Assembly: GCA_035527535.1 (NCBI GenBank)
Contig: DATLAK010000084.1
Location: 9,413-73,412 of the forward strand
Reading direction: 5' to 3'
DNA from: Armatimonadota bacterium
GTDB lineage: Bacteria; Armatimonadota; Hebobacteria; GCA-020354555; CP070648
Length of the DNA stretch: 64,000 nt
The position numbers and the translations under genes were made by a program. Positions 4,687 through 62,642 of this stretch are shown in pieces. Numbering within the stretch: position 1 is the first letter of the stretch; every line of letters starts with the position of its first letter. The notes below the pieces were generated by a model. The model did not search any database, was not told where the DNA came from, and saw only the letters and a list, made by a program, of their open reading frames with translations.

Positions 4687-5742
4687 TTACGTCCACCCCT
4701 GTTCATACCCCGTTTCGTACATGGCGACGATGTTTTCGGGCCGGCTGACGGCCTGAATATTGTGACACGGCGCCAGGATGTAGCCGCCGCCGGCGCCGAG
4801 AATGCGCAGGTTATCCTCCACCTCCTGCCGCACCTGCGCGACAGTGCCGAAGGCCAGCGTGTATTGGTTGTCCACCCCGCCGTGGAACACCAGCCGCTCG
4901 CCGAAATCGCGCTTCAACCCCTCGCGCTCCATGCCCTTGCAGCGCCATTGGATGGGGTTGAGCACGTCTATGCCGGCCGCGACCAGGTCGGGCAGGATCT
5001 CGCGGATCGCGCCGTCGCTGTGGTGGAAGACGTAGGCGCCGGCGTCGTGTGCCAGCTCCATCATGCGCTTCATGCGCGGCAGCAGGAACTCGTGGATGTG
5101 CGCGCGCGACAGCATCAGACCTTCCTGGGAACCGAGGTCCTCGGCGACATAGGTAATCATCACCTGGCCGGGGATCTGCTCGTAGATGCGCCGCGTGTTC
5201 TCGTGGGCCAGGTCGAATAGACGGTCGAGGCAGAAGTGGACGAGGTCCGGGTGCAGCACCAGGTCCATGAACGCCTGCTCCTGGCCGCGCAGGTTCTTGT
5301 AGAGCAGGAACGGCTCCGACCCGCCGCCGCGGAGGGGGCGATGCTCGTTGCCCTCGACCTGACCCGCGATGCCGGAGTAGTCCCACCAGTCAGGGCTGGG
5401 CCAGGAATAGTCGCGCTGCAACTGCTCCAGGGTTTCATACTTCGCCAGGGGGTTGTGAATGCACTCGGAATAGGCGCCCGTGCCGTAATCCACGGTCTGG
5501 TGCCGGCAGCCGAAGAGGTCCTCACCCGGCGGCGGCTCAGGGCCGACGTAGCGGCCGCTCACCGTCACCGGAGCGTCAATGTGCAGGCGGTGAAACACCT
5601 CGCCCAGATCGGCGCAGCCGAGATGGCGCAGGAGCTTCTCCGTCGCCTCGCCGGTCGCCCAATAGTCCATGGGCACGCGATCCGGCCGCTCCCGCCGTAG
5701 CACCGCCAGCCAGCGCTCCCGCGGGGTCATGGTCTCTTTCAT
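4687..5742 (-). CDS. uroporphyrinogen decarboxylase (URO-D)/MtaA-CmuA family protein
   Basis: URO-D fold signatures: RVPMDYW..., HHSDGAIREILPDLVAAGIDVLNPIQ, FHGGVDNQ. Confidence 0.7.
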   Translation of the reverse strand: MKETMTPRERWLAVLRRERPDRVPMDYWATGEATEKLLRHLGCADLGEVFHRLHIDAPVTVSGRYVGPEPPPGEDLFGCRHQTVDYGTGAYSECIHNPLAKYETLEQLQRDYSWPSPDWWDYSGIAGQVEGNEHRPLRGGGSEPFLLYKNLRGQEQAFMDLVLHPDLVHFCLDRLFDLAHENTRRIYEQIPGQVMITYVAEDLGSQEGLMLSRAHIHEFLLPRMKRMMELAHDAGAYVFHHSDGAIREILPDLVAAGIDVLNPIQWRCKGMEREGLKRDFGERLVFHGGVDNQYTLAFGTVAQVRQEVEDNLRILGAGGGYILAPCHNIQAVSRPENIVAMYETGYEQGWT

Positions 5743-5787
5743 TGGTTGCTCCTGCGTGTCTGGAACGATAAAGACACGAACGGTAGG

Positions 5788-5844
5788 GCAGCCGTCTCGG
5801 CTGCCAACCCGTCGAGGATGCCAGGCGGGACGCCTGGCCTACCG
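5788..5844. repeat. REP-C double hairpin GGCAGCCGTCTCGGCTGCC ... CCAGGCGGGACGCCTGGCCTACCG
   Basis: Intergenic, between the two URO-D genes. Shares CCTGGCCTACCG with the copy at 15347-15370. Confidence 0.6.
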
Positions 5845-5912
5845 TGTCTTTGTGCGGCTAGGCCAGGGGCCGCCGTGGCGGTCAGCATTGCTGACCTAGC
5901 CACCTTGGTGGT

Positions 5913-7067
5913 TCAACTGCCGCCGTACTTCGGTGCCAGCCGGTGGAACTCATCCAGCAGCGCCATGAAGTTATCGTACTTCGTGCCGTAGGCGATGGAC
6001 TGGCTGGGGCCGAGGATGAACCCCGGCGTGCGGGCGCCGCGCTCCAGTGCCTGCCGCACGTCGCGGCGGATGTCATCGGGCGTGCCCGCGATCAAGTCCT
6101 CCACCGGCACCCCGCCCCACAGGCACAGGCGGTCGCCGAAGTCGCGCTTCAGCCCGCCGATCTCCATATCCGGGATGTCCTGCAGCGACTGGTAGCACTG
6201 CACGCCCGCCTCGATGAACATCGGGATCAGCGGGCGGTTATCGCCGCAGCTATGCAGCACCACCTGGTAGCCCAGCGCGCGCGCGCGTCGCACCCGCTCG
6301 CGCATCGCCTCGAAGCAGAACTCGCGGAACATCCGCGGCGAGATGAACGGCCCCTTGGTCGTTCCGAAGTCTTGCTGGAAGAACACCCCGTCCTGGCCGG
6401 GGCGAAGCATGTACTCGTCGGCCGCGTTCTGGCGCGCGACCGCCTGCCCGGTCGCCGCGCGCACCACCTCGGGATGGAGCGCGTATTCCAGCAGCCCGCG
6501 CTCCCATCCGCCCAAGAGCACCATCGCGGCAAACCCGCCCGAGTCGCCGAGGATGTAGCGGTCGCCCCCCAGGTGCTCGATCACATGGTCCACCGCCTCG
6601 AAGATGGTGGGGTCGGGCGGCTGCACCTCGACCGGCCCCGTGAACTGCTCGACGGTGTAGGCAGTCGCTTCGACCGTCGGATCCTCGACGCAGGCGATGT
6701 TGTTCGTCTCCAGCGACGCCTTCCACACGCGCCCCTTGCGGTCGCGCCACGTGTTGTCGGCGATCTGCTTCGGCGGGTCCTCGGGCGCCCACCCGCGCGG
6801 CGGCACGATCGGCGCCTCCTTGAAGGCGATGACGTCGGCCACCTCGAGCTTGCGGTAGAACTCGACGGTATCACGCTGGTAGCTATCCACCACCTCGTCG
6901 CGCCGGCCCTGCCACAGCGCGAGCTGGGCCTTGATCTTGTTGCGCACATAGGTCTCGCGCCCGATCACGCGCTCGATGGTGTCGCAGTCCACGACGTAGA
7001 AGCCCAATGGCACGCGATCCACCGGCTCCCGGTTGATCGCGGCGCGCACTCGTTCCTTGCCGTTCAT
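5913..7067 (-). CDS. URO-D/MtaA family protein (paralog)
   Basis: Same fold: REPVDRVPLGFY, LHSCGDNRPLIPMFIEAGVQCYQSLQ, LWGGVP. Start at MNGKERV. Confidence 0.7.
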   Translation of the reverse strand: MNGKERVRAAINREPVDRVPLGFYVVDCDTIERVIGRETYVRNKIKAQLALWQGRRDEVVDSYQRDTVEFYRKLEVADVIAFKEAPIVPPRGWAPEDPPKQIADNTWRDRKGRVWKASLETNNIACVEDPTVEATAYTVEQFTGPVEVQPPDPTIFEAVDHVIEHLGGDRYILGDSGGFAAMVLLGGWERGLLEYALHPEVVRAATGQAVARQNAADEYMLRPGQDGVFFQQDFGTTKGPFISPRMFREFCFEAMRERVRRARALGYQVVLHSCGDNRPLIPMFIEAGVQCYQSLQDIPDMEIGGLKRDFGDRLCLWGGVPVEDLIAGTPDDIRRDVRQALERGARTPGFILGPSQSIAYGTKYDNFMALLDEFHRLAPKYGGS

Positions 7068-7102: not shown

Positions 7103-9853
7103 TCACTCGCGCAGCGGCTCGCCCTGGCTGATGATGGTGACGTAAGCGCGTGCGCTCGCGGTCTGGTCGGCCCGTGCGTCGCAGGTGAAAGCGACCTGGT
7201 TGTCGCCGGCGGCAAGCTCCGGCGCTTCTCCCTCGGGCTGCACCTCGGCAATCAGCTTGCCCTGGGGATCATAGAGCCTGCAATCCGACATGGAGCGAAA
7301 CTCGAGGTAGCAGCCGGTTTCGATCTCGCACGGGAAGACGACGGTCTTGCCGCCGATGGTCACCGCCGGGTTGCGCAACTTGATCTCGACCAGCGGCAGC
7401 GCCCGGATGGGGCTCAGGCGGCAGTCCACCTGTCCCCCCGGCGGGAGGTTGTTGTACCATAGGCCGAGCGATGCCACCTGGCGGTAGTCCACGAACTCGC
7501 GGTAAATCGAGTGCAGATCGCCGTAGGGCCAGTGATAGTCCTCGAAGCGCGCGCCCTCCGGCTCGATCATCTCGAAGTAGCGCCAGCCGGTGAAGTCCAC
7601 AATGACGTAATGGTCGCCGATGCCGGCGACAACGTGCTCCGGGCTGCGGAGCTGAAAGTTGAGCACTTCCCCCTGCCCGTCGCCGTGAACCCAAACGCCG
7701 AGCGCCTGGCGCTCACCGAGGTCGAGCGGGGTCGGGAACACCTTGGTCATCCCCGCCCACGTTGCGGTGGGCTGCTGCAGTTCGCTGGTGGCGGTGTAGC
7801 GGCCGCTGACGGGGCCCGCCTTCACCTCGGCCGCGTCGGGGCGCAGATCCGCACGCACACCGGCCTGGGCGACGCGATCGGCGAAGTCGCGGTCGTCCGC
7901 GAAATCCGCCAGCGTCAAGTTGTCGGCCGCGTCGTACGGGCCCGCCGACAGCAGCGCCTCGATCCGCAACTGCGCGGGCTGGCCACCAAACTTGCTGCAC
8001 GTGGTCCAGACGTTGCTCCAGCCGTCGCTGCCCTGCACTTTGTGCTTCGCATATTGCACCGGCCGGAAGAACCACTTGCCGTCTGCGGCTTGCTCCAGCG
8101 TGAACTCGCCGCCAGGCGCCCTCAGCTTCGCCTTGACCGACTCCGGGAAGTAGTTGGCGTGCCGTAGATCCTCGTACCGCTTGAAGACGGCCGCCAGCCG
8201 CGCGAAGGCCGGCACTTGCGCTATGCTGTCGGGGTCCACCCCCATCAGCGAGAGGCCGGTATCGGTGGCCAGGGCCTTGCCGCACAGGTACTCGATGTCG
8301 TCCGTGAAGGTGGGCTCCCCCTCGGCGCCCGACCAGGTATTCACCGCCCACCATCCCAGGTGGCCAGGCATCAACATCCGCAGATTGCCCTGGTTGACAG
8401 CAACGTGGAGGTCTATGAATCGCTTGTGACTGCGCCGGGGGTGATCCCAGGCACCCAAGCGCGAGCGCACATACCACAGGTGATGGTGGAATGTGCTCAT
8501 CTCCATGAGCGCGGGGCGCTGCAGGTGCTTCCATATCTCGAACACGAACCTAGAGCTGTAGTGCCAGTAGTTCTCGGCCCCGCCGAGGATGTCTCCGCCG
8601 TCCAGCGCATCGAGGTAGATCATGTCGAAGCCGCACTCGTTGAAGGCCTGCGCGGTCCTTTCCGCCACCTCGCCCAACAGCGTGGAATCGGCATCGGGCA
8701 CGAACAGGCCGAAGCACTCCTTCAGGTGATGCACCTTCGCCCCCGGGGCATGGGGAGCGGGCCGCGTGCCGCAGGCGCCGCGCTCGCAGCCGGTGAAGCC
8801 GTAGGGCGGATCCTGGGCTACACCGGCATAGGTGATCAGCTCGTCGTCTATCTGCAGGGTGGCGCTGTTGCGCACGTAGAAGCCGGTGACCGCGGACATG
8901 CCTTCGGTCTCCTCCATCACCGCCACCGCGGTGTCGTCGGCGCCCAGCGCCGCGGCCAAGGTCAGGCACGCATCCTTGGCGAGCCGCGGATCCGGCGACG
9001 GCGCCACCCACGGGCAGCGCTTGTCAATGAAGAAAGCGTAGGTATGCAGGCCGGCCTTGATGCCGGCGGCGTGCAGCCGGTCAATCACCGCCTTGAGGCT
9101 GGCGAAGCCGCGCGGGTAGGTTTCCGGATTGGGCAGGCAGTCCCCAAACCGGAAGGAAGCGCCGCCGTGGAAGTCTATCTGGTTGAAGCCAAGCGCCTGC
9201 ACTAGCCTGATCCAGTCATCCGCGGTCTGCTCCGACAGGTTGGCGAGGTTGAACAGGTATGACCCGCGGTTGATCTCGGCGTCGAGCGCCCACGGCCCGC
9301 CGATGGAGGAATGCGGCAGCTCCGGCGCCGCGCTCACGACTTCTTGCATCACCTGCCGCAGCTCGCCCTGGGGGCAAGCGATGAGCGCGACCTTGGCGCC
9401 GGCGAAGCCGAAGCGGGGATAGCACGCCGCCCACAGGTGCTTGCTCGGTCCCGGCAGCCCGGACACATTGGTCTGCAGGTTGAGGGCGAGCGCGCAGCAG
9501 GCGAACTCCTCCTCCAGCGTCCCCTCAAGCGTGAGACCGATGTTGGCGAACACGAGCTCCTCCACCCCTTCGCCCGCGACCGACAGGACTTCCAGGGTAA
9601 AGTAGCGCCCCTGCTCGACTGCCGCGAGCACGACCTCGACTCCCGCATCGCCGAACTGCGCCGTGATGCGCCCGTCCCGAAACGAGACCGCTGACGCGCC
9701 GTGATACCGGCCCGCCTGCTTGACTTGAGCGAACGGGAGCCGTGGCTCCCGGACGCAGTAGTCCATGCCCGTGCGCCGGTCAATCAGGTGTGAGTTCTCG
9801 CCGTTGGGGCCGATCTCGTAGCTGGCGCATTGGTTCTCGATTCCCATGGTCAT
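7103..9853 (-). CDS. large (916 aa) hypothetical protein, TIM-barrel glycoside-hydrolase-like
   Basis: Long GC3-rich ORF. Segment GFNQIDFHGG...AGIKAGLHTY is typical of (beta/alpha)8 glycosidases. No exact family assigned. Confidence 0.55.
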   Translation of the reverse strand: MTMGIENQCASYEIGPNGENSHLIDRRTGMDYCVREPRLPFAQVKQAGRYHGASAVSFRDGRITAQFGDAGVEVVLAAVEQGRYFTLEVLSVAGEGVEELVFANIGLTLEGTLEEEFACCALALNLQTNVSGLPGPSKHLWAACYPRFGFAGAKVALIACPQGELRQVMQEVVSAAPELPHSSIGGPWALDAEINRGSYLFNLANLSEQTADDWIRLVQALGFNQIDFHGGASFRFGDCLPNPETYPRGFASLKAVIDRLHAAGIKAGLHTYAFFIDKRCPWVAPSPDPRLAKDACLTLAAALGADDTAVAVMEETEGMSAVTGFYVRNSATLQIDDELITYAGVAQDPPYGFTGCERGACGTRPAPHAPGAKVHHLKECFGLFVPDADSTLLGEVAERTAQAFNECGFDMIYLDALDGGDILGGAENYWHYSSRFVFEIWKHLQRPALMEMSTFHHHLWYVRSRLGAWDHPRRSHKRFIDLHVAVNQGNLRMLMPGHLGWWAVNTWSGAEGEPTFTDDIEYLCGKALATDTGLSLMGVDPDSIAQVPAFARLAAVFKRYEDLRHANYFPESVKAKLRAPGGEFTLEQAADGKWFFRPVQYAKHKVQGSDGWSNVWTTCSKFGGQPAQLRIEALLSAGPYDAADNLTLADFADDRDFADRVAQAGVRADLRPDAAEVKAGPVSGRYTATSELQQPTATWAGMTKVFPTPLDLGERQALGVWVHGDGQGEVLNFQLRSPEHVVAGIGDHYVIVDFTGWRYFEMIEPEGARFEDYHWPYGDLHSIYREFVDYRQVASLGLWYNNLPPGGQVDCRLSPIRALPLVEIKLRNPAVTIGGKTVVFPCEIETGCYLEFRSMSDCRLYDPQGKLIAEVQPEGEAPELAAGDNQVAFTCDARADQTASARAYVTIISQGEPLRE

Positions 9854-10803: not shown

Positions 10804-10833
10804 TTGACGATCCCGCCAAACGTGTGTTAGCAT
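10804..10833 (+). promoter_or_regulatory. candidate sigma70 promoter: TTGACG-N17/18-TGtTAGCAT
   Basis: -35 TTGACG 10804-10809. Extended -10 TGtTAGCAT ~10825-10833. Lies ~35 bp upstream of the island's first gene. Confidence 0.35.
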
Positions 10834-10868: not shown

Positions 10869-11126
10869 TTGAAAGAGTACGAGGAATGGTACAGGGCGAA
10901 TCCTCTGCGTCAGTGGAGGGAAGGGCAGGAGCCTCGCGTATCGCGACCCGCGCTCGCCCACGAGATGATCGTTCGCGGGTATTCCATCACCCCCGCGACC
11001 ATCCAGCGTTGGGAGTGCGGCGAGTACGCAGTGCCCGATGCGGCGATGAAGTTGCTGGCGGAGATCACGGGCATGCGCGACCTGCGCGCGAGGTGGGAGA
11101 AGTGGCAGGGAGGGCGTGCGAGATGA
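10869..11126 (+). CDS. XRE/Cro-type helix-turn-helix protein (85 aa), TTG start
   Basis: HTH pattern SRPALAHEMIVRGYSITPATIQRWECGEYAVPDAAMKLLA. RBS GGAGGG sits 7 nt upstream of TTG. In-frame stop immediately upstream. Confidence 0.5.
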   Translation: MKEYEEWYRANPLRQWREGQEPRVSRPALAHEMIVRGYSITPATIQRWECGEYAVPDAAMKLLAEITGMRDLRARWEKWQGGRAR

Positions 11127-11245: not shown

Positions 11246-11881
11246 ATGCCGCTTACAGGCCCAAGAGCCCTGTTGCTGGCATTGCTATACGCTCCTGGCG
11301 CAAGGCGGATGCCCGGAGAACCCATCGCCGGTATCACGCGCCTGCAGAAACTACTGTTCCTCCTGCAGGAGGAGTACGGATTGCGGAAAGGCGGCCGGGG
11401 GGTTCTGGTCTTCGAGCCGTACCGGTTCGGTCCGTACTCGGCGGCCCTGTATGACGAGATCAGCTTCCTCGAGAACCTGAATCTCATCACGGACAGGAGA
11501 GATACGGGGGCGGCGAGCGCCGAGGAGACTGAGCAGGAGGACAAGCTGGTCGAGGGACTCATGGCGGAGGCAGAAACGGAAGGCAGCATCGGGGCGGAAA
11601 TTAGTGAGGAGGACGTGAAGGGCCTGGAGTACCTTCTAGATGATGTGCCTGGCGAGGACGCCCTCGAGGCGAATCCTGACGAGAGGCAATTCTGCCTCAC
11701 GCCCAGGGGCATGGCCTCTGCGAAGGCCGTCTTTGACTCGCTCAGCTCCGACGAGCGGCATGCCCTTGAGAGCGCCAAATCGAGGTTCGGAGGCATGTCG
11801 TTGAGGAACCTCATCCGGTATGTCTACACGCAGTATCCGGAATCGGCAAGCGAATCGGAGATCAGGGATCGTATACTGTGA
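11246..11881 (+). CDS. Panacea-domain (SocA-like antitoxin) protein with acidic C-terminal extension
   Basis: ITRLQKLLFLLQEEYG...FEPYRFGPYSAALYDEI matches the Panacea/SocA hallmark (hxLQKLLY...GPxxxxLY). RBS GGAGGT upstream. Confidence 0.5.
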   Translation: MPLTGPRALLLALLYAPGARRMPGEPIAGITRLQKLLFLLQEEYGLRKGGRGVLVFEPYRFGPYSAALYDEISFLENLNLITDRRDTGAASAEETEQEDKLVEGLMAEAETEGSIGAEISEEDVKGLEYLLDDVPGEDALEANPDERQFCLTPRGMASAKAVFDSLSSDERHALESAKSRFGGMSLRNLIRYVYTQYPESASESEIRDRIL

Positions 11882-12402
11882 TGGTTCCTACGACCGCGCA
11901 GATGGGGGCGGCAGGTGCGGTTCTGGCATTCGCAGCTGGCGCGCTCGCATTGCTTCACAACTCAAAGCGGATGGAGCGTGCCAGAGATCTTGCCGCCGCC
12001 CAGTCGCGACTTTGGGAGCGAGCAGTACTTGAGTTGCGCGAGCACATCCAGCGTCTCCATGACCTGGCTGATAGATGCATGGCGGAGTCGGGTCCGGAAG
12101 CTGGGACAGCCGGCCAGATGCGGCGTCTCTTGCGTCGGTCCAGGGGGTGTGTTCGCCGCCTGGACGCGCCGATTCGGCTAGGCAAGTGGGTCTCTGGTAC
12201 CGAGAGGAGCATGTTTGCTTCCGCCCTCGGGCTGGTTGCTTCGTGTCTGGCCGTGCTGCTCGGCGGCGCATTTTCGTTCAGCCCGTTCCCGTATGCGACT
12301 TGGATGGGTGTGGGGAGCGGCGCGGCCTTGGTACTCAGCTATGGTGGCAATTATGCCGCTATCTGCTGCTGCGAAAGGCTGATGAGGGCGCAAGGGCTGT
12401 AG
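11878..12402 (+). CDS. membrane protein with central coiled-coil (candidate toxin partner)
   Basis: ATGA start/stop overlap with the upstream gene. One N-terminal TM helix, a coiled-coil in the middle, two C-terminal TM helices. Confidence 0.45.
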   Translation: MMVPTTAQMGAAGAVLAFAAGALALLHNSKRMERARDLAAAQSRLWERAVLELREHIQRLHDLADRCMAESGPEAGTAGQMRRLLRRSRGCVRRLDAPIRLGKWVSGTERSMFASALGLVASCLAVLLGGAFSFSPFPYATWMGVGSGAALVLSYGGNYAAICCCERLMRAQGL

Positions 12403-12414
12403 GGAGTGCCGAGC

Positions 12415-12828
12415 ATGACCGAGATCGAGATCGAGGAAGCGGTGGCCGAGTTCCTCTCCCGACCTGGTTGTCTTGTGGAGCGGCAGGTAGCCTTTCTCCG
12501 AAAGGTCGCGGATGTCTGCTCCTACGATCCTGTCTGCGACACGCTGCTGGCTGTGGAGGCGAAGCGAGAGGACTGGCGCCGCGGGATGCAGCAGGCGCGG
12601 TATTACCAGCTCTTCGCCGACGCCGTCTACATCGCTCTGCCAGAATGCCGGGCGCTGCGTGTCCGAACGCCGCAACTCGAAGAGACAGGCATAGGTCTCC
12701 TTGTGGTGAACAGCACAGTCTCTGTCAGCGTGGAACATGGCCACAACCCTTTCCGCCGAGATCTGTGTCGTGAGATGGTGATTGAGCGTCTTCGCTCTGG
12801 CCCGCGAAGTGGAGGGGGGAACCGCTGA
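12415..12828 (+). CDS. PD-(D/E)xK nuclease, RecB/Cas4-like family
   Basis: CDTLLAVEAK (D...ExK) followed by QQARYYQ (QxxxY). RBS AGGGAG. An alternative GTG start lies at 12406. Confidence 0.5.
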   Translation: MTEIEIEEAVAEFLSRPGCLVERQVAFLRKVADVCSYDPVCDTLLAVEAKREDWRRGMQQARYYQLFADAVYIALPECRALRVRTPQLEETGIGLLVVNSTVSVSVEHGHNPFRRDLCREMVIERLRSGPRSGGGNR

Positions 12829-14150
12829 TGTCATTTGCCGCTGCACAGGCCCCCCAGAATCTGTATCGGCTTGGAACGCACGCCGAAGCGGAGTATTACC
12901 GCCATCTGAAGTCCGCTTACGACGGCATGATCGTCAATGCCAACCTGGTAGAGGCGACCCCGAAGGCCACAGCCTCGTTCCTGGCTACACAAGGCAAGCC
13001 CTTTCTGCTCGACCCGATGACATACGCGTTCGGGCTGAGTCCTGCGGTGCTGCATAGCAACTCCAAGCGCGGGGGGATGAAACGCTCATTTGCCGCTCTA
13101 GCCGAACGATATGGCGGGGTCATACTGAAGCTGGCCGGCAAGGAGGCGATAGGGCCGGATGCCTTCCAGCGAGATTCGGACGTGTCTGACCTTGCCAAGG
13201 CCGTCATCAGTTACCAACTACACCGCTTCGATGATATAGCGAATGAGATGAAAGATGCTGCCCCTGAGGCGTTCGGCGGACTCACCGGACTCTCGCCTGC
13301 TGGGGCGATTGCACCCTACTTCCACATTGATGAGGTCATCGAGCCGGCGCTCTCACTGAACACGCGGCTTCTCCGCGCCGCTGTCTCCCTCCAGCCCGAG
13401 CAGCCAATCTACGCCATGCTGTGCCTTTCCAGCGGGATTCTCTTTGCTGCAAATCTGCTAGACACGATCGCGGGTGCCTACGTGACGGCTGGCGCGACGG
13501 GTTTCATGTTCTGGTTCGATGACGCCACGGAGCGGACCATCGGGACTCTGGGCGTGCAGAATCTCGTCAGATTTGTGAGAGCGTTGAGCCAGAATGGGCA
13601 CTCGGTCTACAACGCTTACGGCGGCTGCCTCTCCGCCCTTCTTTCTCGCTTTGGCCTTTGCGGCTTCTCGCATGGCCTCGGTTACGGAGAGCGCAGGTCG
13701 ATTGTGCCTGTGACGGGCGGAAGTGTTCCGCCACCGAAGTACTATGTTCCGCCGCTCTGCGAGCGGTACAATGTGACGACCGTCTTGCTGATTGCCCCTT
13801 CCGTGCAGTCTGGGATCGACTTTCACGCAGAGATATGCGGCTGCGCAGTCTGTCGCCGGGTGCTGGCAGGTAACCCGGATCGGCTTGTTGAGTTCGGTCG
13901 AACCAGAGATATGTCCGACAAGAATGGGCGGCCTATCAGCGTTCCCACCGCTGAAAGCATCAAGCTTTGCCGGCTTCATTACATGCTCGCGAAAAGGGAC
14001 GAGGTAAACCGGATTCGGGCCAACTGGAGCAGCGCAGTCGAAAGCCTGGCCGTGGCCTACGAGAAGTACGTCGATGTCCTCGGCAAGCCCGAGGTGGCTC
14101 ATCTCGATGTGTGGCACCGCGAACTGACTGCCGCCAACCGAAAACCGTGA
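12828..14150 (+). CDS. hypothetical protein with CxCxxC...H zinc site, possibly tRNA/DNA-guanine transglycosylase (TGT/DpdA)-like
   Basis: TGATG overlap with the nuclease gene. CGCAVC...H motif. DTIAGAYVTAGATGFMFWFDDA resembles the TGT DDIVGAVERGIDMFDCV region. Fold assignment is inference. Confidence 0.55.
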   Translation: MSFAAAQAPQNLYRLGTHAEAEYYRHLKSAYDGMIVNANLVEATPKATASFLATQGKPFLLDPMTYAFGLSPAVLHSNSKRGGMKRSFAALAERYGGVILKLAGKEAIGPDAFQRDSDVSDLAKAVISYQLHRFDDIANEMKDAAPEAFGGLTGLSPAGAIAPYFHIDEVIEPALSLNTRLLRAAVSLQPEQPIYAMLCLSSGILFAANLLDTIAGAYVTAGATGFMFWFDDATERTIGTLGVQNLVRFVRALSQNGHSVYNAYGGCLSALLSRFGLCGFSHGLGYGERRSIVPVTGGSVPPPKYYVPPLCERYNVTTVLLIAPSVQSGIDFHAEICGCAVCRRVLAGNPDRLVEFGRTRDMSDKNGRPISVPTAESIKLCRLHYMLAKRDEVNRIRANWSSAVESLAVAYEKYVDVLGKPEVAHLDVWHRELTAANRKP

Positions 14151-14459: not shown

Positions 14460-15011
14460 GTGGTTCCCAACGTGCGCTTCTCTCAATCAATAAGCAGGCT
14501 TCCCGCAGAGGACAGGAAACCGCCCTGGGAGTACCGCGTCAAGTTTGAGAACGCTGGCAGGAGAGCCATCATGGATGTCGAGGTGACAGCCAGACTTCGA
14601 GTGAAGCGCTTGGTCGCGACCCGTCCTGGCAATTGGTGGGTGTCCAGCATTCCTGTCGAGTACGGTGACCCCATATGCAGGGTCCCTAAGATGGGACCCG
14701 TGCGCACAGGGGCACGTCGCCAAATTGTGCCGCTTCTGGTGAACGACGCGGAGCAGTTCAGACAGGCTCCCTATCCGGCAGAGGTCAGGGAGAAGGCACA
14801 GAACCGATCTCTGCTGCCGGAGGATCTACTGCGGTTGGGCGATAGGACGGAACTGCGGCTCATCGTCTCCGGATATGATGCCTTCAGCGGCGCCCGACGG
14901 CTCTTCGTATCAAAGGAATACACCGTGGGCGACATCATCGACGGACGGTTCAACAAGGATGGACTAGAAGTAATACCGCAGGCTAGTGAGCCGTCTGAGC
15001 CTTCCGCGTGA
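14460..15011 (+). CDS. hypothetical protein
   Basis: GC3-consistent ORF. No recognised motif. Start uncertain (GTG 14460 or ATG 14569). Confidence 0.35.
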   Translation: MVPNVRFSQSISRLPAEDRKPPWEYRVKFENAGRRAIMDVEVTARLRVKRLVATRPGNWWVSSIPVEYGDPICRVPKMGPVRTGARRQIVPLLVNDAEQFRQAPYPAEVREKAQNRSLLPEDLLRLGDRTELRLIVSGYDAFSGARRLFVSKEYTVGDIIDGRFNKDGLEVIPQASEPSEPSA

Positions 15012-15370: not shown

Positions 15371-15563
15371 ATTACGGCGCGGTGGTGCCCGGCTCACTCC
15401 GCCCCGGCCGAATCCCGCCTTTGTGCCGCGCCTGCGCGACCAAAGCTGTTCCCAATCTGTTACACTCCGTGGGGAATCCATCGCGCATGGGGAGGCGTGG
15501 AGACAAGGGCGTGATGAATCACGCCCCTACACCGGAATTCACGGAGCTTATGGAGGCGAAATC

Positions 15564-16769
15564 ATGGCGGAGCATGACTACCAGTACGTCATCATCGGCG
15601 GCGGGCCGGCCGGCGCGGCGGCGATCGAAGGGATCAGGGAACGTGACCACGATGGTCGCATCCTGCTGGTCGGCGCGGAAAAGCATTTGCCCTATGACCG
15701 CCCCCCGCTGTCGAAGAAGTTGTGGTTCGGCAAGAAGCAGGTCGCGGACATCTTCCTCCACGACCAGGCGTTCTATGCCGCCAACTCGACCGACCTCGCC
15801 CTCGGCGTCCGCGTGGTCGGCCTCGATCCGCAGCGCAAGACGATCACCGACGACCAGGGCGACCTCCACCATTACCACAAGCTGCTGCTGGCCACGGGCG
15901 GCATCCCGCGCACCCTTGGCATCCCGGGGGGCGACCTGGAGGGCGTCTGCTACTACCGCTACCTGGACGATTACCTGACAACCCGCGCGCGGGCGACGGC
16001 GGCCAAGTCGGCGGTGGTCATCGGCGGCGGCTTCATCGGCTCGGAGATGGCGGCGGCGCTCAGCCTCAACCAGGTGGAGGTGACGATGGTCTTCCCGGAG
16101 CAATGCCTGGTGGCGCGCGTGTTCCCGGAAACCCTGGGGCGGTCGCTCCAGCAAACCTACATCGAGCGCGGGATCACCGTCCTGTCGGGAGACGTGCCTA
16201 CCGCTATCGAGCGGCATGATGACGCCCTCATCGTCGCCACCCGCGGCGGCCGGCGCCTGCGGGCCGACATCGTCATCGCCGGCATCGGCATCGCGCCCGC
16301 GAGCGAGCTGGCGGCGGGGGCGGGGCTGACCCTCGACGACGGGATTGTGGTTGACGAATACCTGCGCACCTCGGCCCCCGATATCCATGCCGCCGGCGAC
16401 AACGCGTTCTTCCCCTACCAGGTGTTGGGGCAGCGCACGCGCGTCGAACACTGGGATAACGCGGTCAACCAGGGCAAGCAGGCGGGGCGCAACCTGGCGG
16501 GGGCGCAGGAGGCGTTCACCTACATGCCGTACTTCTTCTCCGACCTCTTCGATTTCGGCTACGAGGCCGTCGGCGAGGTGGACGCCCGACTGGAGACCTT
16601 CGCCGATTGGCGGCAGGAGAACGACACGGGCGTCATCTATTACCTGCGGGAGGGGCAGGTGCGAGGGGCGATGATGTGCAACGTGTGGGACCAGGTGGAG
16701 GCGGCGCGGGAGCTGATTCGCGGCGGCCGGCGGATGACCGCGGAGGACCTGCGCGGCGCCATCAAGTAA
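15564..16769 (+). CDS. FAD-dependent pyridine nucleotide-disulfide oxidoreductase (AIF/ferredoxin-reductase-like)
   Basis: YVIIGGGPAGAAA (FAD), VVIGGGFIGSEMAA (NAD), AAGDNA motif. RBS GGAGG. Confidence 0.8.
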   Translation: MAEHDYQYVIIGGGPAGAAAIEGIRERDHDGRILLVGAEKHLPYDRPPLSKKLWFGKKQVADIFLHDQAFYAANSTDLALGVRVVGLDPQRKTITDDQGDLHHYHKLLLATGGIPRTLGIPGGDLEGVCYYRYLDDYLTTRARATAAKSAVVIGGGFIGSEMAAALSLNQVEVTMVFPEQCLVARVFPETLGRSLQQTYIERGITVLSGDVPTAIERHDDALIVATRGGRRLRADIVIAGIGIAPASELAAGAGLTLDDGIVVDEYLRTSAPDIHAAGDNAFFPYQVLGQRTRVEHWDNAVNQGKQAGRNLAGAQEAFTYMPYFFSDLFDFGYEAVGEVDARLETFADWRQENDTGVIYYLREGQVRGAMMCNVWDQVEAARELIRGGRRMTAEDLRGAIK

Positions 16770-16799
16770 GGGCGCGCGGGACGGCGCCGACGGGAGGAC

Positions 16800-17123
16800 G
16801 TGATGGACTTGGCGGAGCAGGAATGTCATCCGGTGGCGGCGACGACCCCGCCCCTGTCGCGGCCGGAGGCGGAGAAGCTGGCCCAGGAGATCCCGCAGTG
16901 GACGCTGAAGGAGGGGGTGATCGAGCGCGAGTTCACCCTCGACGATTTCGAGGAGGCGATGGAATTCGTTAACGGCGTCGCCGAGATCGTGCAGGAGCAG
17001 GACCACCACCCCGACATCTACATCGCCTACAACCAGGTGCGGCTGGAGTTCTCGACGCACAAGATCGGCGGGCTGTCCCGCAACGATTTCATCATGGCGG
17101 CCAGGGTGGACGAGCTGGCGTAG
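16800..17123 (+). CDS. pterin-4a-carbinolamine dehydratase
   Basis: ~105 aa. EQDHHPDIYIAYNQVRLEFSTH is the PCD signature. Confidence 0.75.
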   Translation: MMDLAEQECHPVAATTPPLSRPEAEKLAQEIPQWTLKEGVIEREFTLDDFEEAMEFVNGVAEIVQEQDHHPDIYIAYNQVRLEFSTHKIGGLSRNDFIMAARVDELA

Positions 17124-19245: not shown

Positions 19246-19764
19246 ATGGCGCGCGCGTTCATCGGCATCGGCTCCAATATCGCCCCCGAGCGGAACCTGC
19301 GCGCCGCGCTGCGCCGGCTCGCCCGCGACGCGCGCGTGATGGGTGTTTCGACGGTCTATCGCACGGCGCCGGTGGGCCGCCCCGAGCAGCCGCCGTTCTA
19401 TAACTGCGTGGTCGAGATCGAGACCGGGTTGGCGCCGGCGCAGGTGCGGAGCGCCTTGCGCGGCATCGAGCAGGAACTGGGCCGCCGCCGCGGCGCCGAC
19501 CGGTACGCGCCGCGCGCCATAGACCTGGACCTGCTGCTGTACGATGACCTGGTGATGGCGAACGCCGAGCTGGTGCTGCCGGATCCGCAAATCGCGCAGC
19601 GCCCGTTCCTGGCGCTGCCGCTGTACGAGCTGGCGCCGGAGCTGGTGCTGCCCGATAGCGGGGATCCCATTCGGGAGGTCGCCGCCGCCATGGCAGCCCA
19701 CGACATGCAGCCGCTGCCGGAGTACACGCGGCTTCTGCGAGAGGGTATCGCCCATGAATCGTGA
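19246..19764 (+). CDS. folK: 2-amino-4-hydroxy-6-hydroxymethyldihydropteridine pyrophosphokinase
   Basis: AFIGIGSNI...YRTAPVG...[10 protein letters not shown] matches the HPPK signature. Confidence 0.85.
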
Positions 19765-20320
19765 CAAGGTCGAGCGACTGGTGAGAGAGCTGCTGGCCGA
19801 AATCGGCGAGGACCCCGAGCGCGAGGGCCTGGTCAAGACCCCGCGGCGCGTCGCCGCCGCGCTCGAGTTCTTGACCGCGGGCTATGGCGCCGACCTCAAG
19901 ACCATCATCGCCGGCGCGGTCTTCACCCAGCAGACCAACAACATGGTCATCCTGCGCGACATCGAGCTCTACAGCCTGTGCGAGCACCACCTGCTGCCGT
20001 TCTTCGGGCGCTGCCACATCGGCTACATCGCCCGCGGCAAGGTCTTCGGCATCAGCAAGCTGGCGCGGCTGGTGGACGCCTACGCGCGGCGGCTGCAGAT
20101 CCAGGAGCGCCTGACCGAGCAGGTCGCACGGGCGGTGATGGAGGGCATCGGCGCCGAGGGCGTGGGCGTCATCATCGAGGCGCGGCACCTGTGCATGATG
20201 ATGCGCGGGGTGGAGAAGCAGAACTCGCTGATGATCACCTCCTCGGTGCTGGGGAGCTTCCACGACTCCGCCGCCACCCGCAGTGAGTTCATGTCGCTCA
20301 TCGGCAGAGCCCATATCTGA
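19754..20320 (+). CDS. folE: GTP cyclohydrolase I
   Basis: [26 protein letters not shown]. Confidence 0.9.
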
Positions 20321-60748: not shown

Positions 60749-61513
60749 CTACATCTGCCCCATGAGCTTGTGCGTTTGCGGGATGACGCGGACGTCGGCG
60801 AGAAGCGGTTTTGCGGCGGCCTGCAGGGCGAGCGCGTGGGCGGGCGCGGGCGGCTCGGGGCCGCCGGCAACCGCGGAGACGGGCTGGAGCACGAGTGGTA
60901 TCTCCGCGCTGACCTGCGCCAGCAGCGTACAGGCGCGCTCGATTTCCTGCTCGGTGGTTGCCTGCGCGAACACCGCCTTGGCGAACAGCAGGGCGCCGGG
61001 GCGCTGCATGAAGGGTCTCGCGGCATCGAGAAAGGCGCGGTGCTCGTCCCAGCACTCGAACCCGGCGGCGCTGGGGAGCTTGAGGTCCATGGCGATGACG
61101 TCAACCGCATCCGACACCCGCGCGAGGGCTTCCGCGAGCGTACCATTGGTTTCCAGGTGCGCCCGCAGTCCCGCCGCCCGCAGTCGCTGTGCCAGGTCGC
61201 GCAGGAACTCCGGCTGCAGCAGCGGCTCGCCGCCGGTGAAGCTCACCGCATCGTGCAGTCGTCCCACCTGCAGGCGCAAGACGAGGGCCGTCGCACCTTC
61301 GGCGTCGAGGGGATTCGCATGCGCCGTGAAGTCGCGACCGCCGGGGGTGTGCTCGGCGCGGCAGCAGGGCGTCCGCGCGCGCGCCCAGGCGGTGTCGCAG
61401 TAGCGGCAGCGCAGGTTGCACCCCGCCAGGCGGACAAAGAGTTGGCGCTGCCCGACGAACAGCCCCTCGCCCTGGGTGGCGGAGAAGACCTCGGCGAGGC
61501 TGCCGGTGATCAT
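60749..61513 (-). CDS. queE: radical SAM enzyme, 7-carboxy-7-deazaguanine synthase (QueE)-like
   Basis: EVFSATQGEGLFVGQRQLFVRLAGCNLRCRYCDT has the QGEG and CxxxCxxCDT QueE signatures. Confidence 0.6.
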   Translation of the reverse strand: MITGSLAEVFSATQGEGLFVGQRQLFVRLAGCNLRCRYCDTAWARARTPCCRAEHTPGGRDFTAHANPLDAEGATALVLRLQVGRLHDAVSFTGGEPLLQPEFLRDLAQRLRAAGLRAHLETNGTLAEALARVSDAVDVIAMDLKLPSAAGFECWDEHRAFLDAARPFMQRPGALLFAKAVFAQATTEQEIERACTLLAQVSAEIPLVLQPVSAVAGGPEPPAPAHALALQAAAKPLLADVRVIPQTHKLMGQM

Positions 61514-61550
61514 CGCAGTCGCCTCGCGGACGCGGCGCCCCCCACCGCGC

Positions 61551-62642
61551 CTATTCCGAATCCAACGGCAGAGTCACCGGCGCGCCGAGGCGCGATGACT
61601 TGTAAACGCCCAGGATGATCTCCACCGCGTGGCGGGCGTCGCCGCCGCTGACCATAGGCTCGCGGTCGTGTCGGATCGCCTCCACCAGGTCCATTATCTG
61701 GCGCACGTGTCCCTCCGCGCCGATGGCGGTGGGGTCGGAGGCCGAGCCGTCGCGCTCGACGGTGACACAGGACCGCGCTTGCTCGAGGGTTTCGCCGGGC
61801 ACCTCCCACTTGACGATATCGTCGCCGTCAACGACGATGGTGCCCCGCTCGCCGTGGAACTCCAGCCGGTGGTCCATGCCGACGACCGAGGTCGTGCCCT
61901 CGAGCACGCCGAAGGCGCCGCTGGCGAAGGTGAGCACCGCCGCCGCGGTGTCCTCGACCTCGATCTTGCGTACCAGATGGTCGGCGCGACCGAAGACGGT
62001 CTGCACCGGACCCATGATCCACTGCAGCAAGTCAACGCAGTGCACGCCCTGGTTCATGAGGGCGCCGCCGCCATCCCACTGCCAGGTGCCCCGCCACCCG
62101 GCGGTGTCGTAGTACTCCTGGCTGCGAAAGTACTTGATGTACGCGTCCCCCAGCACCATCTTACCGAGGGCGCCGGATTGCACCGCCTCGCGCACCTTCC
62201 GCCACACCGGCTGCGTGCGCCGCTGGAAAACCACCCCCAGCTTCACCCCTGCGTCGCGGCAGGCCGCGATCATCGCGTCCATTCGCGCGACGTGGATCTC
62301 CATCGGCTTCTCACACAACACGTGCTTGCCGGCGCGGGCGGCCTCGACCACCATCTCGCCGTGCATCCCGCTCGGGGTGCAGATGGACACGGCTTGGATA
62401 TCGTCCCGCCCCAGCACCTCCCGGTAGTCCGTGTGGTACTGCACGCCGTGCTGCTCGGCCAGGGCTTTCGCCTTGGGCTCGACGATATCGCACACCACCG
62501 CCAGTCTGGCGCCAGGCGCCTGCTCCAGTGCGCGCGTATGCCAGGGGCCGATGACCCCGCACCCGATAACTCCGAAGTTGATGGTTTCCTCCACGATAGG
62601 CCTCCCGGGTAAGGTGGAACCGGCATACGCGCCGTATCTCAA
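61551..62642 (-). CDS. Gfo/Idh/MocA family oxidoreductase
   Basis: INFGVIGCGVIG Rossmann, EKP motif. Confidence 0.8.
   Translation of the reverse strand: MRYGAYAGSTLPGRPIVEETINFGVIGCGVIGPWHTRALEQAPGARLAVVCDIVEPKAKALAEQHGVQYHTDYREVLGRDDIQAVSICTPSGMHGEMVVEAARAGKHVLCEKPMEIHVARMDAMIAACRDAGVKLGVVFQRRTQPVWRKVREAVQSGALGKMVLGDAYIKYFRSQEYYDTAGWRGTWQWDGGGALMNQGVHCVDLLQWIMGPVQTVFGRADHLVRKIEVEDTAAAVLTFASGAFGVLEGTTSVVGMDHRLEFHGERGTIVVDGDDIVKWEVPGETLEQARSCVTVERDGSASDPTAIGAEGHVRQIMDLVEAIRHDREPMVSGGDARHAVEIILGVYKSSRLGAPVTLPLDSE

Follow-up and report, generated by a model that had tools for sequence, protein, structure and literature searches.

The 64,000-nucleotide stretch analysed here (the window) comes from an Armatimonadota bacterium (assembly GCA_035527535.1, contig DATLAK010000084.1, positions 9,413 to 73,412 of the forward strand), and our subject is a translationally coupled gene pair at its positions 12,415 to 14,150, which an earlier note, made from the letters alone, had read as a RecB-family nuclease joined to a zinc protein like tRNA-guanine transglycosylase (TGT) or DpdA. 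Structure modelling shows the second product, of 440 amino acids (aa), to have the fold of the TGT superfamily, with a predicted (βα)8 barrel that is interrupted after β8, ahead of α8, by a CxCxxC...H zinc subdomain. The pair belongs to a four-gene cassette that is conserved and mobile in bacteria and archaea, and in the mapped loci the gene for the TGT-fold protein always stands with a gene for a putative Panacea-domain protein. We consider it an even call whether the pair is the distal half of a mobile four-gene module of the toxin-antitoxin (TA) or abortive-infection kind, anti-phage or plasmid-stabilising; the cassette is probably a TA or anti-virus module and not a system that modifies DNA with 7-deazaguanine. 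Its members in the window are the following (counts refer to the 21 distinct loci described below; TM, transmembrane; ORF, open reading frame).

11246..11881, plus strand: PanA-like protein with a putative Panacea/SocA antitoxin-type domain (211 aa, HUT74307.1), from a SocA_Panacea match; 21/21 loci.
11881..12402, plus strand: predicted membrane protein, 173/174 aa, from a TM scan; its start overlaps the PanA stop (GTGATG), and 19/21 loci hold such an ORF.
12415..12828, plus strand: PD-(D/E)xK nuclease, from invariant core residues, weak Pfam matches and a profile match to 3dnx; 19/21 loci.
12828..14150, plus strand: divergent TGT-superfamily TIM-barrel protein with a zinc subdomain (440 aa, HUT74309.1), with key residues D62-P63, Y164, W229, E235, H282, E288, Y306 and C337/C339/C342/H384; 21/21 loci.

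Both reading frames of the pair are present as first described. The nuclease frame (12406-12828, plus strand) gives 140 aa from a GTG at 12406 or 137 aa from an ATG at 12415, and its stop TGA (12826-12828) lends its A to the ATG of the TGT-like frame (12828-14150, plus strand, 440 aa), forming TGATG, with the stretch GGAGGGGGG just 5' of this junction. The ATG at 12415 is the likely nuclease start, with GGAG 8 nt ahead and the same start in the public record (137 aa), where the product is a 'hypothetical protein VM221_05690 [Armatimonadota bacterium]'; the cassette proteins in public records (HUT74306, HUT74307, HUT74309) are all labelled hypothetical. Since homologs in the same order occur in 21 distinct loci of several phyla, we take the two frames to be real genes and not chance ORFs.

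The 440-aa protein had no match in Pfam, NCBIfam, PADLOC, PHROGs or the sequences of the PDB, and a word-indexed search returned 29 homologs, none of them annotated. When 1.84 billion cluster representatives were scanned with a HMMER profile, 1,079 clusters matched at E<=1e-3 (548 at <=1e-30), nearly all of the matched representatives being 430-480 aa long, so that at 50% identity the family comprises 1,079 clusters or more; a collection of phage GenBank records held no homolog. AlphaFold2, supplied with a 30-sequence alignment, returned a confident model (pLDDT 91.4, pTM 0.90) in which eight alternating β/α units lead into a helical region at the C-terminus, with a long helical insert predicted between β3 and β4 and the N-terminal β-sheet cap lacking. 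In a Foldseek search of the PDB with this model the nine best places were taken by Z. mobilis TGT (E ~2e-5, ~450 aligned columns), and archaeosine TGT was also among the matches; the viral fold collection BFVD gave weak generic barrel matches only. The earlier note had proposed to give up its assignment if no TIM-barrel TGT fold were predicted, and the model and its top matches speak for that fold. A carbohydrate-active or other metabolic TIM barrel of the glycoside-hydrolase kind, for which the TGT likeness would be generic and the neighbouring genes unrelated to function, is scarcely credible: five TGT-superfamily structures form an unbroken block at the head of the fold-search list and score clearly higher (15.1-20.4), a CxCxxC...H subdomain at this place, after β8 and before α8, marks the TGT superfamily specifically, sugar-metabolism neighbours are absent, and the gene keeps its company of a nuclease and an antitoxin-domain gene across bacteria and archaea.

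The zinc site proposed earlier is borne out by the family. CGCAVC (C337, C339 and C342) and H384 are present and kept in 57-59 of 59 members, the cysteines lying, in the model, in an insertion after β8 (279-283) and H384 in a long helix (375-398). TGTs and DpdA likewise draw their zinc cysteines from Ins8 and the histidine from α8 (PMC10164549), the same topology of Cys insertion and helix His. When the family is compared with E. coli TGT by hhalign, only the CxCxxC columns pair (E 0.088; C302/C304/C307 in TGT), and a longer, low-confidence path also pairs H384 with H333; the Cys-to-His spacing is 41 here, 25 in E. coli TGT and 22 in DpdA. A distant member on plasmid pSI-1 of Arthrobacter sp. 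AK-1 (L027, 4938-6167) entirely lacks the CxCxxC cluster and retains the D-P, W, SHG...E and GGxPxRYY motifs, so that the zinc site is dispensable in at least one branch.

The catalytic stretch proposed earlier is not borne out. The earlier note had aligned DTIAGAYVTAGATGFMFWFDDA with the nucleophile stretch of TGT; in the model residues 212-232 form helix α5 and strand β6, not β8, and the low-confidence hhalign path also sets 212-233 (...GFMFWFDDA) on TGT β6 (GYAVGGLAVGE), with D231 aligned to a consensus Thr and D232 an Asp in only 22 of the 59 members. Because that alignment fails, the spacing of about 105 aa between Asp and zinc, which had raised the prospect of an insertion or a different fold, was counted from the wrong residue; from the acidic residue after β8 (E288) to C337 there are 49 aa, and from D264 to C302 of E. 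coli TGT 38 aa. TGT and DpdA have three invariant aspartates, which serve as general acid/base (β3), base reader (β4) and nucleophile (β8; PMC10164549), and Cap10 retains their equivalents (10.1101/2025.04.06.647259). The sole Asp invariant in the whole TGT-like family is D62, followed by P63 at the end of β3, so the three-Asp signature is impossible across the 59 members, whatever the exact alignment. The end of β4 reads P163-Y164-F165, with Y164 in 59/59, and at the end of β8 stands S-H282-G, with G-Y286-G287-E288 next, residue 288 being Glu in 54 members and Asp in 5; W229 on β6 and Y306 are invariant too, and E235, also of β6, is kept in 56/59. From the model we infer that D62 takes the place of D102 (acid/base), E288 that of D280 (nucleophile) and Y164 that of D156, the guanine-reader position. 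The window protein has Ala174 where 56/59 members have Trp and Cys311 where 43/59 have His, its other conserved residues being intact.

This active site bears directly on the function suggested at first, modification-dependent self/non-self discrimination, here by a Dpd-like restriction-modification pair: the DpdA-like enzyme would mark host DNA with 7-deazaguanine (preQ0 or a derivative, by way of folE and queE), and DNA lacking it would be cut by the nuclease. The hint was the presence of folE and a queE-like gene, and both are indeed in the window:

19556-20320, plus strand: folE (GTP_cyclohydroI, E 1.6e-71), 5 kb from the cassette pair.
16800-17123, plus strand: pterin-4a-carbinolamine dehydratase, near folE.
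60749-61573, minus strand: QueE-like radical-SAM ORF, recognised by motif only (GCNLRCRYCDT), 46 kb from the cassette.

Their presence does not support this model, as they lie outside the low-GC island described below, in host-like positions, and nothing comparable is found at related loci. Being beside pterin-4a-carbinolamine dehydratase, folE points to pterin/folate metabolism and not to a queuosine cluster; a pyridine-nucleotide-disulfide oxidoreductase and the dehydratase (15519-17123, plus strand) are both close to it. We regard a Dpd-like pair as very unlikely: it should show the three invariant Asp of TGT and DpdA (PMC10164549), of which one is found here, with Tyr at the guanine-reading position; no DpdB-like ATPase, DpdC, QueC, QueD or QueE occurs within 8 kb at 14 related loci; two of the 21 loci are without the nuclease; and neither the invariant PanA-like partner nor the membrane protein is left a role. 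What stands of the first interpretation is the TGT fold and the zinc site, and what loses support, with no linkage to the preQ0 pathway, is 7-deazaguanine-dependent discrimination with the nuclease.

The cassette was mapped in homolog neighbourhoods, 11 loci of named genomes, two IMG/VR contigs and three plasmids, using hidden Markov models (HMMs) built from the neighbour genes of the window; the 21 distinct loci obtained are a small sample of a family of ~1,000 clusters. Across them the gene order is PanA-like, three-TM protein (~150-205 aa), nuclease, TGT-like. The PanA-like and TGT-like genes are absent in none, the nuclease is absent in L001 and L003, and the TM-type ORF is absent in the Haloarcula plasmids pNG400 and pHsi540; at L001 a gene with a NucS_C domain lies downstream. 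The nuclease and TGT-like genes overlap by up to 35 nt or stand up to 10 nt apart. When the flanks of 15 loci were clustered all against all, no gene beyond the four recurred, and a search for QueC, QueD, QueE and FolE motifs found none within 8 kb in related loci. The bacterial hosts are Armatimonadota (the window), Planctomycetota (Gimesia), Eremiobacterota, Gemmatimonadota, Actinomycetota (the Arthrobacter plasmid pSI-1) and, in Chloroflexota, Dehalococcoidia, Anaerolineales and Limnocylindrales; the archaeal hosts are Halobacteria (Haloarcula plasmids).

In the window the cassette sits within a lower-GC stretch of ~4.8 kb (~10.8-15.6 kb), where six genes have a G+C content at third codon positions (GC3) of 0.67-0.79, compared with 0.89-0.93 in the flanking UPF0047 and oxidoreductase genes; the island ends showed no sign of a tRNA gene, an integrase or flanking direct repeats. 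Elsewhere the cassette keeps mobile company, adjoining a relaxase on the mobilizable plasmid pSI-1, a large serine recombinase at L018 (9665-11329), and ParA, HNH and insertion-sequence elements on pNG400. Defence-type neighbours include a Type IIG restriction-modification (RM) enzyme and a DUF5906 protein at L016 (2854-6240 and 11117-13972), Type ISP RM enzyme, Mrr_N and PIN genes near the cassette at L006 (9405-12737), and a 1,154-aa DNA methylase fusion at L019 (1852-5313). On pHsi540 of Haloarcula sinaiiensis (L030), where the TM gene is absent, a SIR2_2 protein (5369-6856, Pfam E 2.8e-24) follows ~100 bp past the TGT-like gene on the same strand, which may be an effector swap. Large ORFs upstream of the cassette at L021 and downstream at L023 were considered as parts of the system and rejected, as they are housekeeping genes for a class II ribonucleotide reductase (RNR) and Mfd.

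The identity of the cassette nuclease as a PD-(D/E)xK enzyme is confirmed at the level of sequence comparison. Its homologs from related loci are found by blastp at 1e-16 to 1e-18, and in an alignment of 12 homologs E6, D36, E51, K53, W57, Q63, D72 and G97 are invariant, which includes the complete core (D36, E51 and K53 in 12/12). A Pfam scan of the family gave MTES_1575 REase in 4/12, MmcB-like (5.8e-4) and NERD (3.5e-3), all below the curated cutoffs and all PD-(D/E)xK families, and the family profile matched an MmcB-like protein from structural genomics, PDB 3dnx (E 0.0032), the D and ExK being aligned. The RecB/Cas4 label given before therefore needs trimming: the D36, E51-A-K53 core is sound, and the subfamily is not confirmed, Pfam giving no PDDEXK_1 or Cas4 match; the QxxxY motif (Q63xxxY67) is there and only partly kept, with Q63 invariant and Y67 in 9/12; and the Cas4 cysteine cluster is absent as stated, no Cys being conserved in the alignment. 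A separate homolog search with the nuclease returned nothing but the nuclease itself, and a single-sequence AlphaFold model was unusable (pLDDT 48.7). This nuclease family is seen here only next to the TGT-fold gene.

As for the first gene, the window PanA-like protein matches Pfam SocA_Panacea at E 2.8e-5 (25.4 bits; cutoff 25.7), as do 5/15 family members, and both Haloarcula orthologs are named 'type II toxin-antitoxin system antitoxin SocA domain-containing protein' in NCBI. PADLOC PDC-M19A gives a partial match (5.7e-13); membership of PDC-M19 was rejected, since the match is confined to the Panacea-like N-terminus of this first gene and no other cassette gene has one. The family is acidic (median isoelectric point 5.1) and has an acidic insert. 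There are hints, from sequence, that the Panacea-like protein could additionally bind DNA. Residues ~120-165 ('...Y.IT..G...' and the next helix) weakly match the wing of winged-helix Sso10a and PadR-like TM0937 (E 0.1-0.4).

By TM scan, each second-gene protein begins with a TM helix, continues through ~90 hydrophilic residues and closes with two more TM helices. The window ORF has no sequence-level support from a leave-one-out HMM (10.3 bits, best shuffle 9.5), and we take it as real because of its position, its GTGATG coupling, its architecture and its island-like codon usage. A SLATT identity was rejected, the matches being weak and single, with no consistent Pfam family in 18 members. A 37-nt direct repeat of 70% identity, probably due to chance, links 11546-11582 in the PanA-like gene with 12064-12100 in the TM gene. 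Direct binding is the known means by which PanA antitoxins neutralise membrane-disrupting toxins that have TM helices at the C-terminus (PMC8832971).

Taken together, we propose a mechanism in which the TGT-fold protein would use the acidic pair of its barrel, D62 on β3 as the general acid/base and E/D288 just after β8 as the nucleophile. The Asp that reads the edge of guanine or 7-deazaguanine would be replaced by the invariant Tyr, in a pocket lined by the aromatic Y164, W229 and Y306; because of this replacement and the aromatic pocket, the base that the enzyme flips out of a nucleic acid may be neither guanine nor 7-deazaguanine but another, perhaps a modified one in invading DNA, whose N-glycosidic bond it would cleave or exchange. 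DNA so marked would then be cut by the nuclease, which is basic and translationally coupled to the enzyme. The Panacea protein would restrain the toxic components by direct binding, as PanA antitoxins do, and the membrane protein would be the cell-killing effector, a place that a SIR2 NADase-type gene appears to take on one Haloarcula plasmid.

A simpler arrangement would be a two-component pair of PanA and the TGT-fold enzyme, the latter being the toxin, for instance one that blocks translation by excising or exchanging a base of tRNA or rRNA, with the TM protein and the nuclease as accessories. Only the PanA-like and TGT-like genes occur in all 21 loci, PanA domains counteract toxins of very different folds, translation being the target of many (PMC8832971), and the closest structural relatives of the TGT-fold protein act on tRNA. 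Nevertheless we judge this pair unlikely: type II TA partners are normally adjacent, and here one or two genes lie between the two in every locus examined; the nuclease and the TM protein, each in 19/21 loci, are too constant for optional accessories; and the tight coupling of the nuclease and TGT-like genes suggests a complex acting on DNA. Similarly, the TGT-fold protein could be non-catalytic, in the manner of QTRT2 or of Cap10 with its protein-linked base, and serve as a binding or sensor subunit that controls the nuclease and membrane effectors upon binding a free base, a nucleotide, a modified nucleic acid or a partner protein. We would put little weight on this possibility, since the always-acidic pair (D62, E/D288), H282 and the invariant aromatics on the predicted catalytic face look like a maintained active site, and no QueC-like or CD-NTase partner is present.

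The preferred reading, a TA-like or abortive-infection module with a catalytic TGT-fold protein, has to be weighed against several observations that speak against one or another of its parts. At the level of the fold, the TGT model PF01702 is matched by 0/48 diverse family members at E<=0.1, and no other family is matched consistently either; hhalign gives the family no significant match to E. coli TGT or to a TGT profile (probability <2%), the homolog search with E. coli TGT that was to supply a diverse profile having yielded only orthologs of >=83% identity. The equivalences of D62, E288 and Y164 come from the one-to-one order of the eight strands and not from superposition, and the low-confidence hhalign path puts TGT β8 elsewhere. 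With a median isoelectric point of ~6.2 the TGT-like family is not obviously a nucleic-acid binder. Among the partners, the Panacea assignment is marginal by its Pfam score, the second-gene proteins have a common architecture and almost no common sequence, and the window TM ORF is uncalled in the GenBank record, where locus tags pass from VM221_05685 to VM221_05690. Finally, the replacement of the TM gene by SIR2 is one case only, and defence genes are beside only a minority of loci; others are flanked by housekeeping genes (class II RNR, Mfd, glycine-cleavage), so that the association of the cassette with defence islands is only suggestive.

Around the cassette, the window holds three further features of the island region.

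10804..10833, plus strand: sigma-70-like promoter match ahead of the helix-turn-helix gene listed next, a possible operon promoter (TTGACG-18-TAGCAT with extended TG; a consensus match only).
10869..11126, plus strand: 85-aa helix-turn-helix (HTH) protein (HUT74306.1), with weak HTH_31, HTH_3 and Aca2 matches and GC3 0.79.
14460..15011, plus strand: 183-aa orphan ORF outside the conserved cassette, with an island-like GC3 of 0.67.

Neither the HTH gene nor the 183-aa ORF has a counterpart in related loci. The latter has no family-library match, its exact sequence is absent from a collection of 15 billion proteins, and its only similarity is a weak blastp match (E ~0.01) to the PanA-like protein of L003. 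A 916-aa ORF (7103-9853, minus strand) lies directly upstream of the island region.

TGT-fold enzymes are, to our knowledge, the only base-exchange catalysts of nucleic acids, and two branches of the fold, DpdA and Cap10, have recently been found in immune systems. The family described here is large (>=1,079 clusters) and has no Pfam, NCBIfam or PADLOC model, combining the TGT fold and zinc site with a putatively rebuilt base pocket. Were the TGT-fold protein active, TGT chemistry would reach a new substrate, and a defence or TA system would be added that PanA surveys overlooked by design: the survey that defined PanA left out operons of more than three genes (PMC8832971), which would explain why the cassette was missed. 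A more far-reaching and doubtful proposal is that of a new anti-phage or anti-plasmid system of Bacteria and Archaea, in which a third, independently recruited TGT branch, retuned from guanine or 7-deazaguanine to another base (possibly a hypermodified phage base), would act as a base-flipping glycosylase or transglycosylase that marks foreign DNA for the PD-(D/E)xK nuclease, with a Panacea-controlled, exchangeable suicide effector (membrane protein or SIR2) as a second layer. Candidate catalytic and zinc residues are now defined in the TGT-fold protein (D62, E288, H282, Y164, C337/C339/C342) and in the nuclease (D36, K53).

The fold class and the single module types are already known; no description seems to exist of the family, of its altered active site or of the combination of four genes, the literature searched, whose coverage is incomplete and no proof of absence, reporting neither the TGT-like family nor the combination. 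With bacterial TGT (Z. mobilis 3unt/1PUD, E. coli Tgt) the 440-aa protein has no detectable sequence homology; it has Tyr for the β4 Asp, His282 at the end of β8 and Glu288 six residues on, and its gene is mobile and not beside queA. DpdA (7ui4) keeps three Asp, of which the 440-aa protein has one, and requires the DpdB ATPase and preQ0 (PMC10164549), whereas no DpdB, DpdC or preQ0 gene is found at any related cassette locus. Cap10 of the type IV cyclic-oligonucleotide-based antiphage signalling system (CBASS; 9ntn) keeps D73/S74, D122 and D248 and has a QueC-like Cap9 and a CD-NTase as partners; neither partner lies beside the TGT-like gene at any locus, and there is no PADLOC match. Like the MmcB-like and MTES_1575 nucleases (3dnx), the cassette nuclease is a small single-domain PD-(D/E)xK protein, set apart by the extra invariant W57, Q63 and D72 as a small family of its own. 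The cassette resembles PanA-PanT in its first gene, with a putative Panacea/SocA-type domain, which in 19/21 loci overlaps or abuts that of a small protein with C-terminal TM helices, like the validated membrane-disrupting PanT (PMC8832971). It differs from PanA-PanT in having four genes and a marginal Panacea match with an acidic insert, and in that its invariant partner is the TGT-fold protein and not the TM protein.

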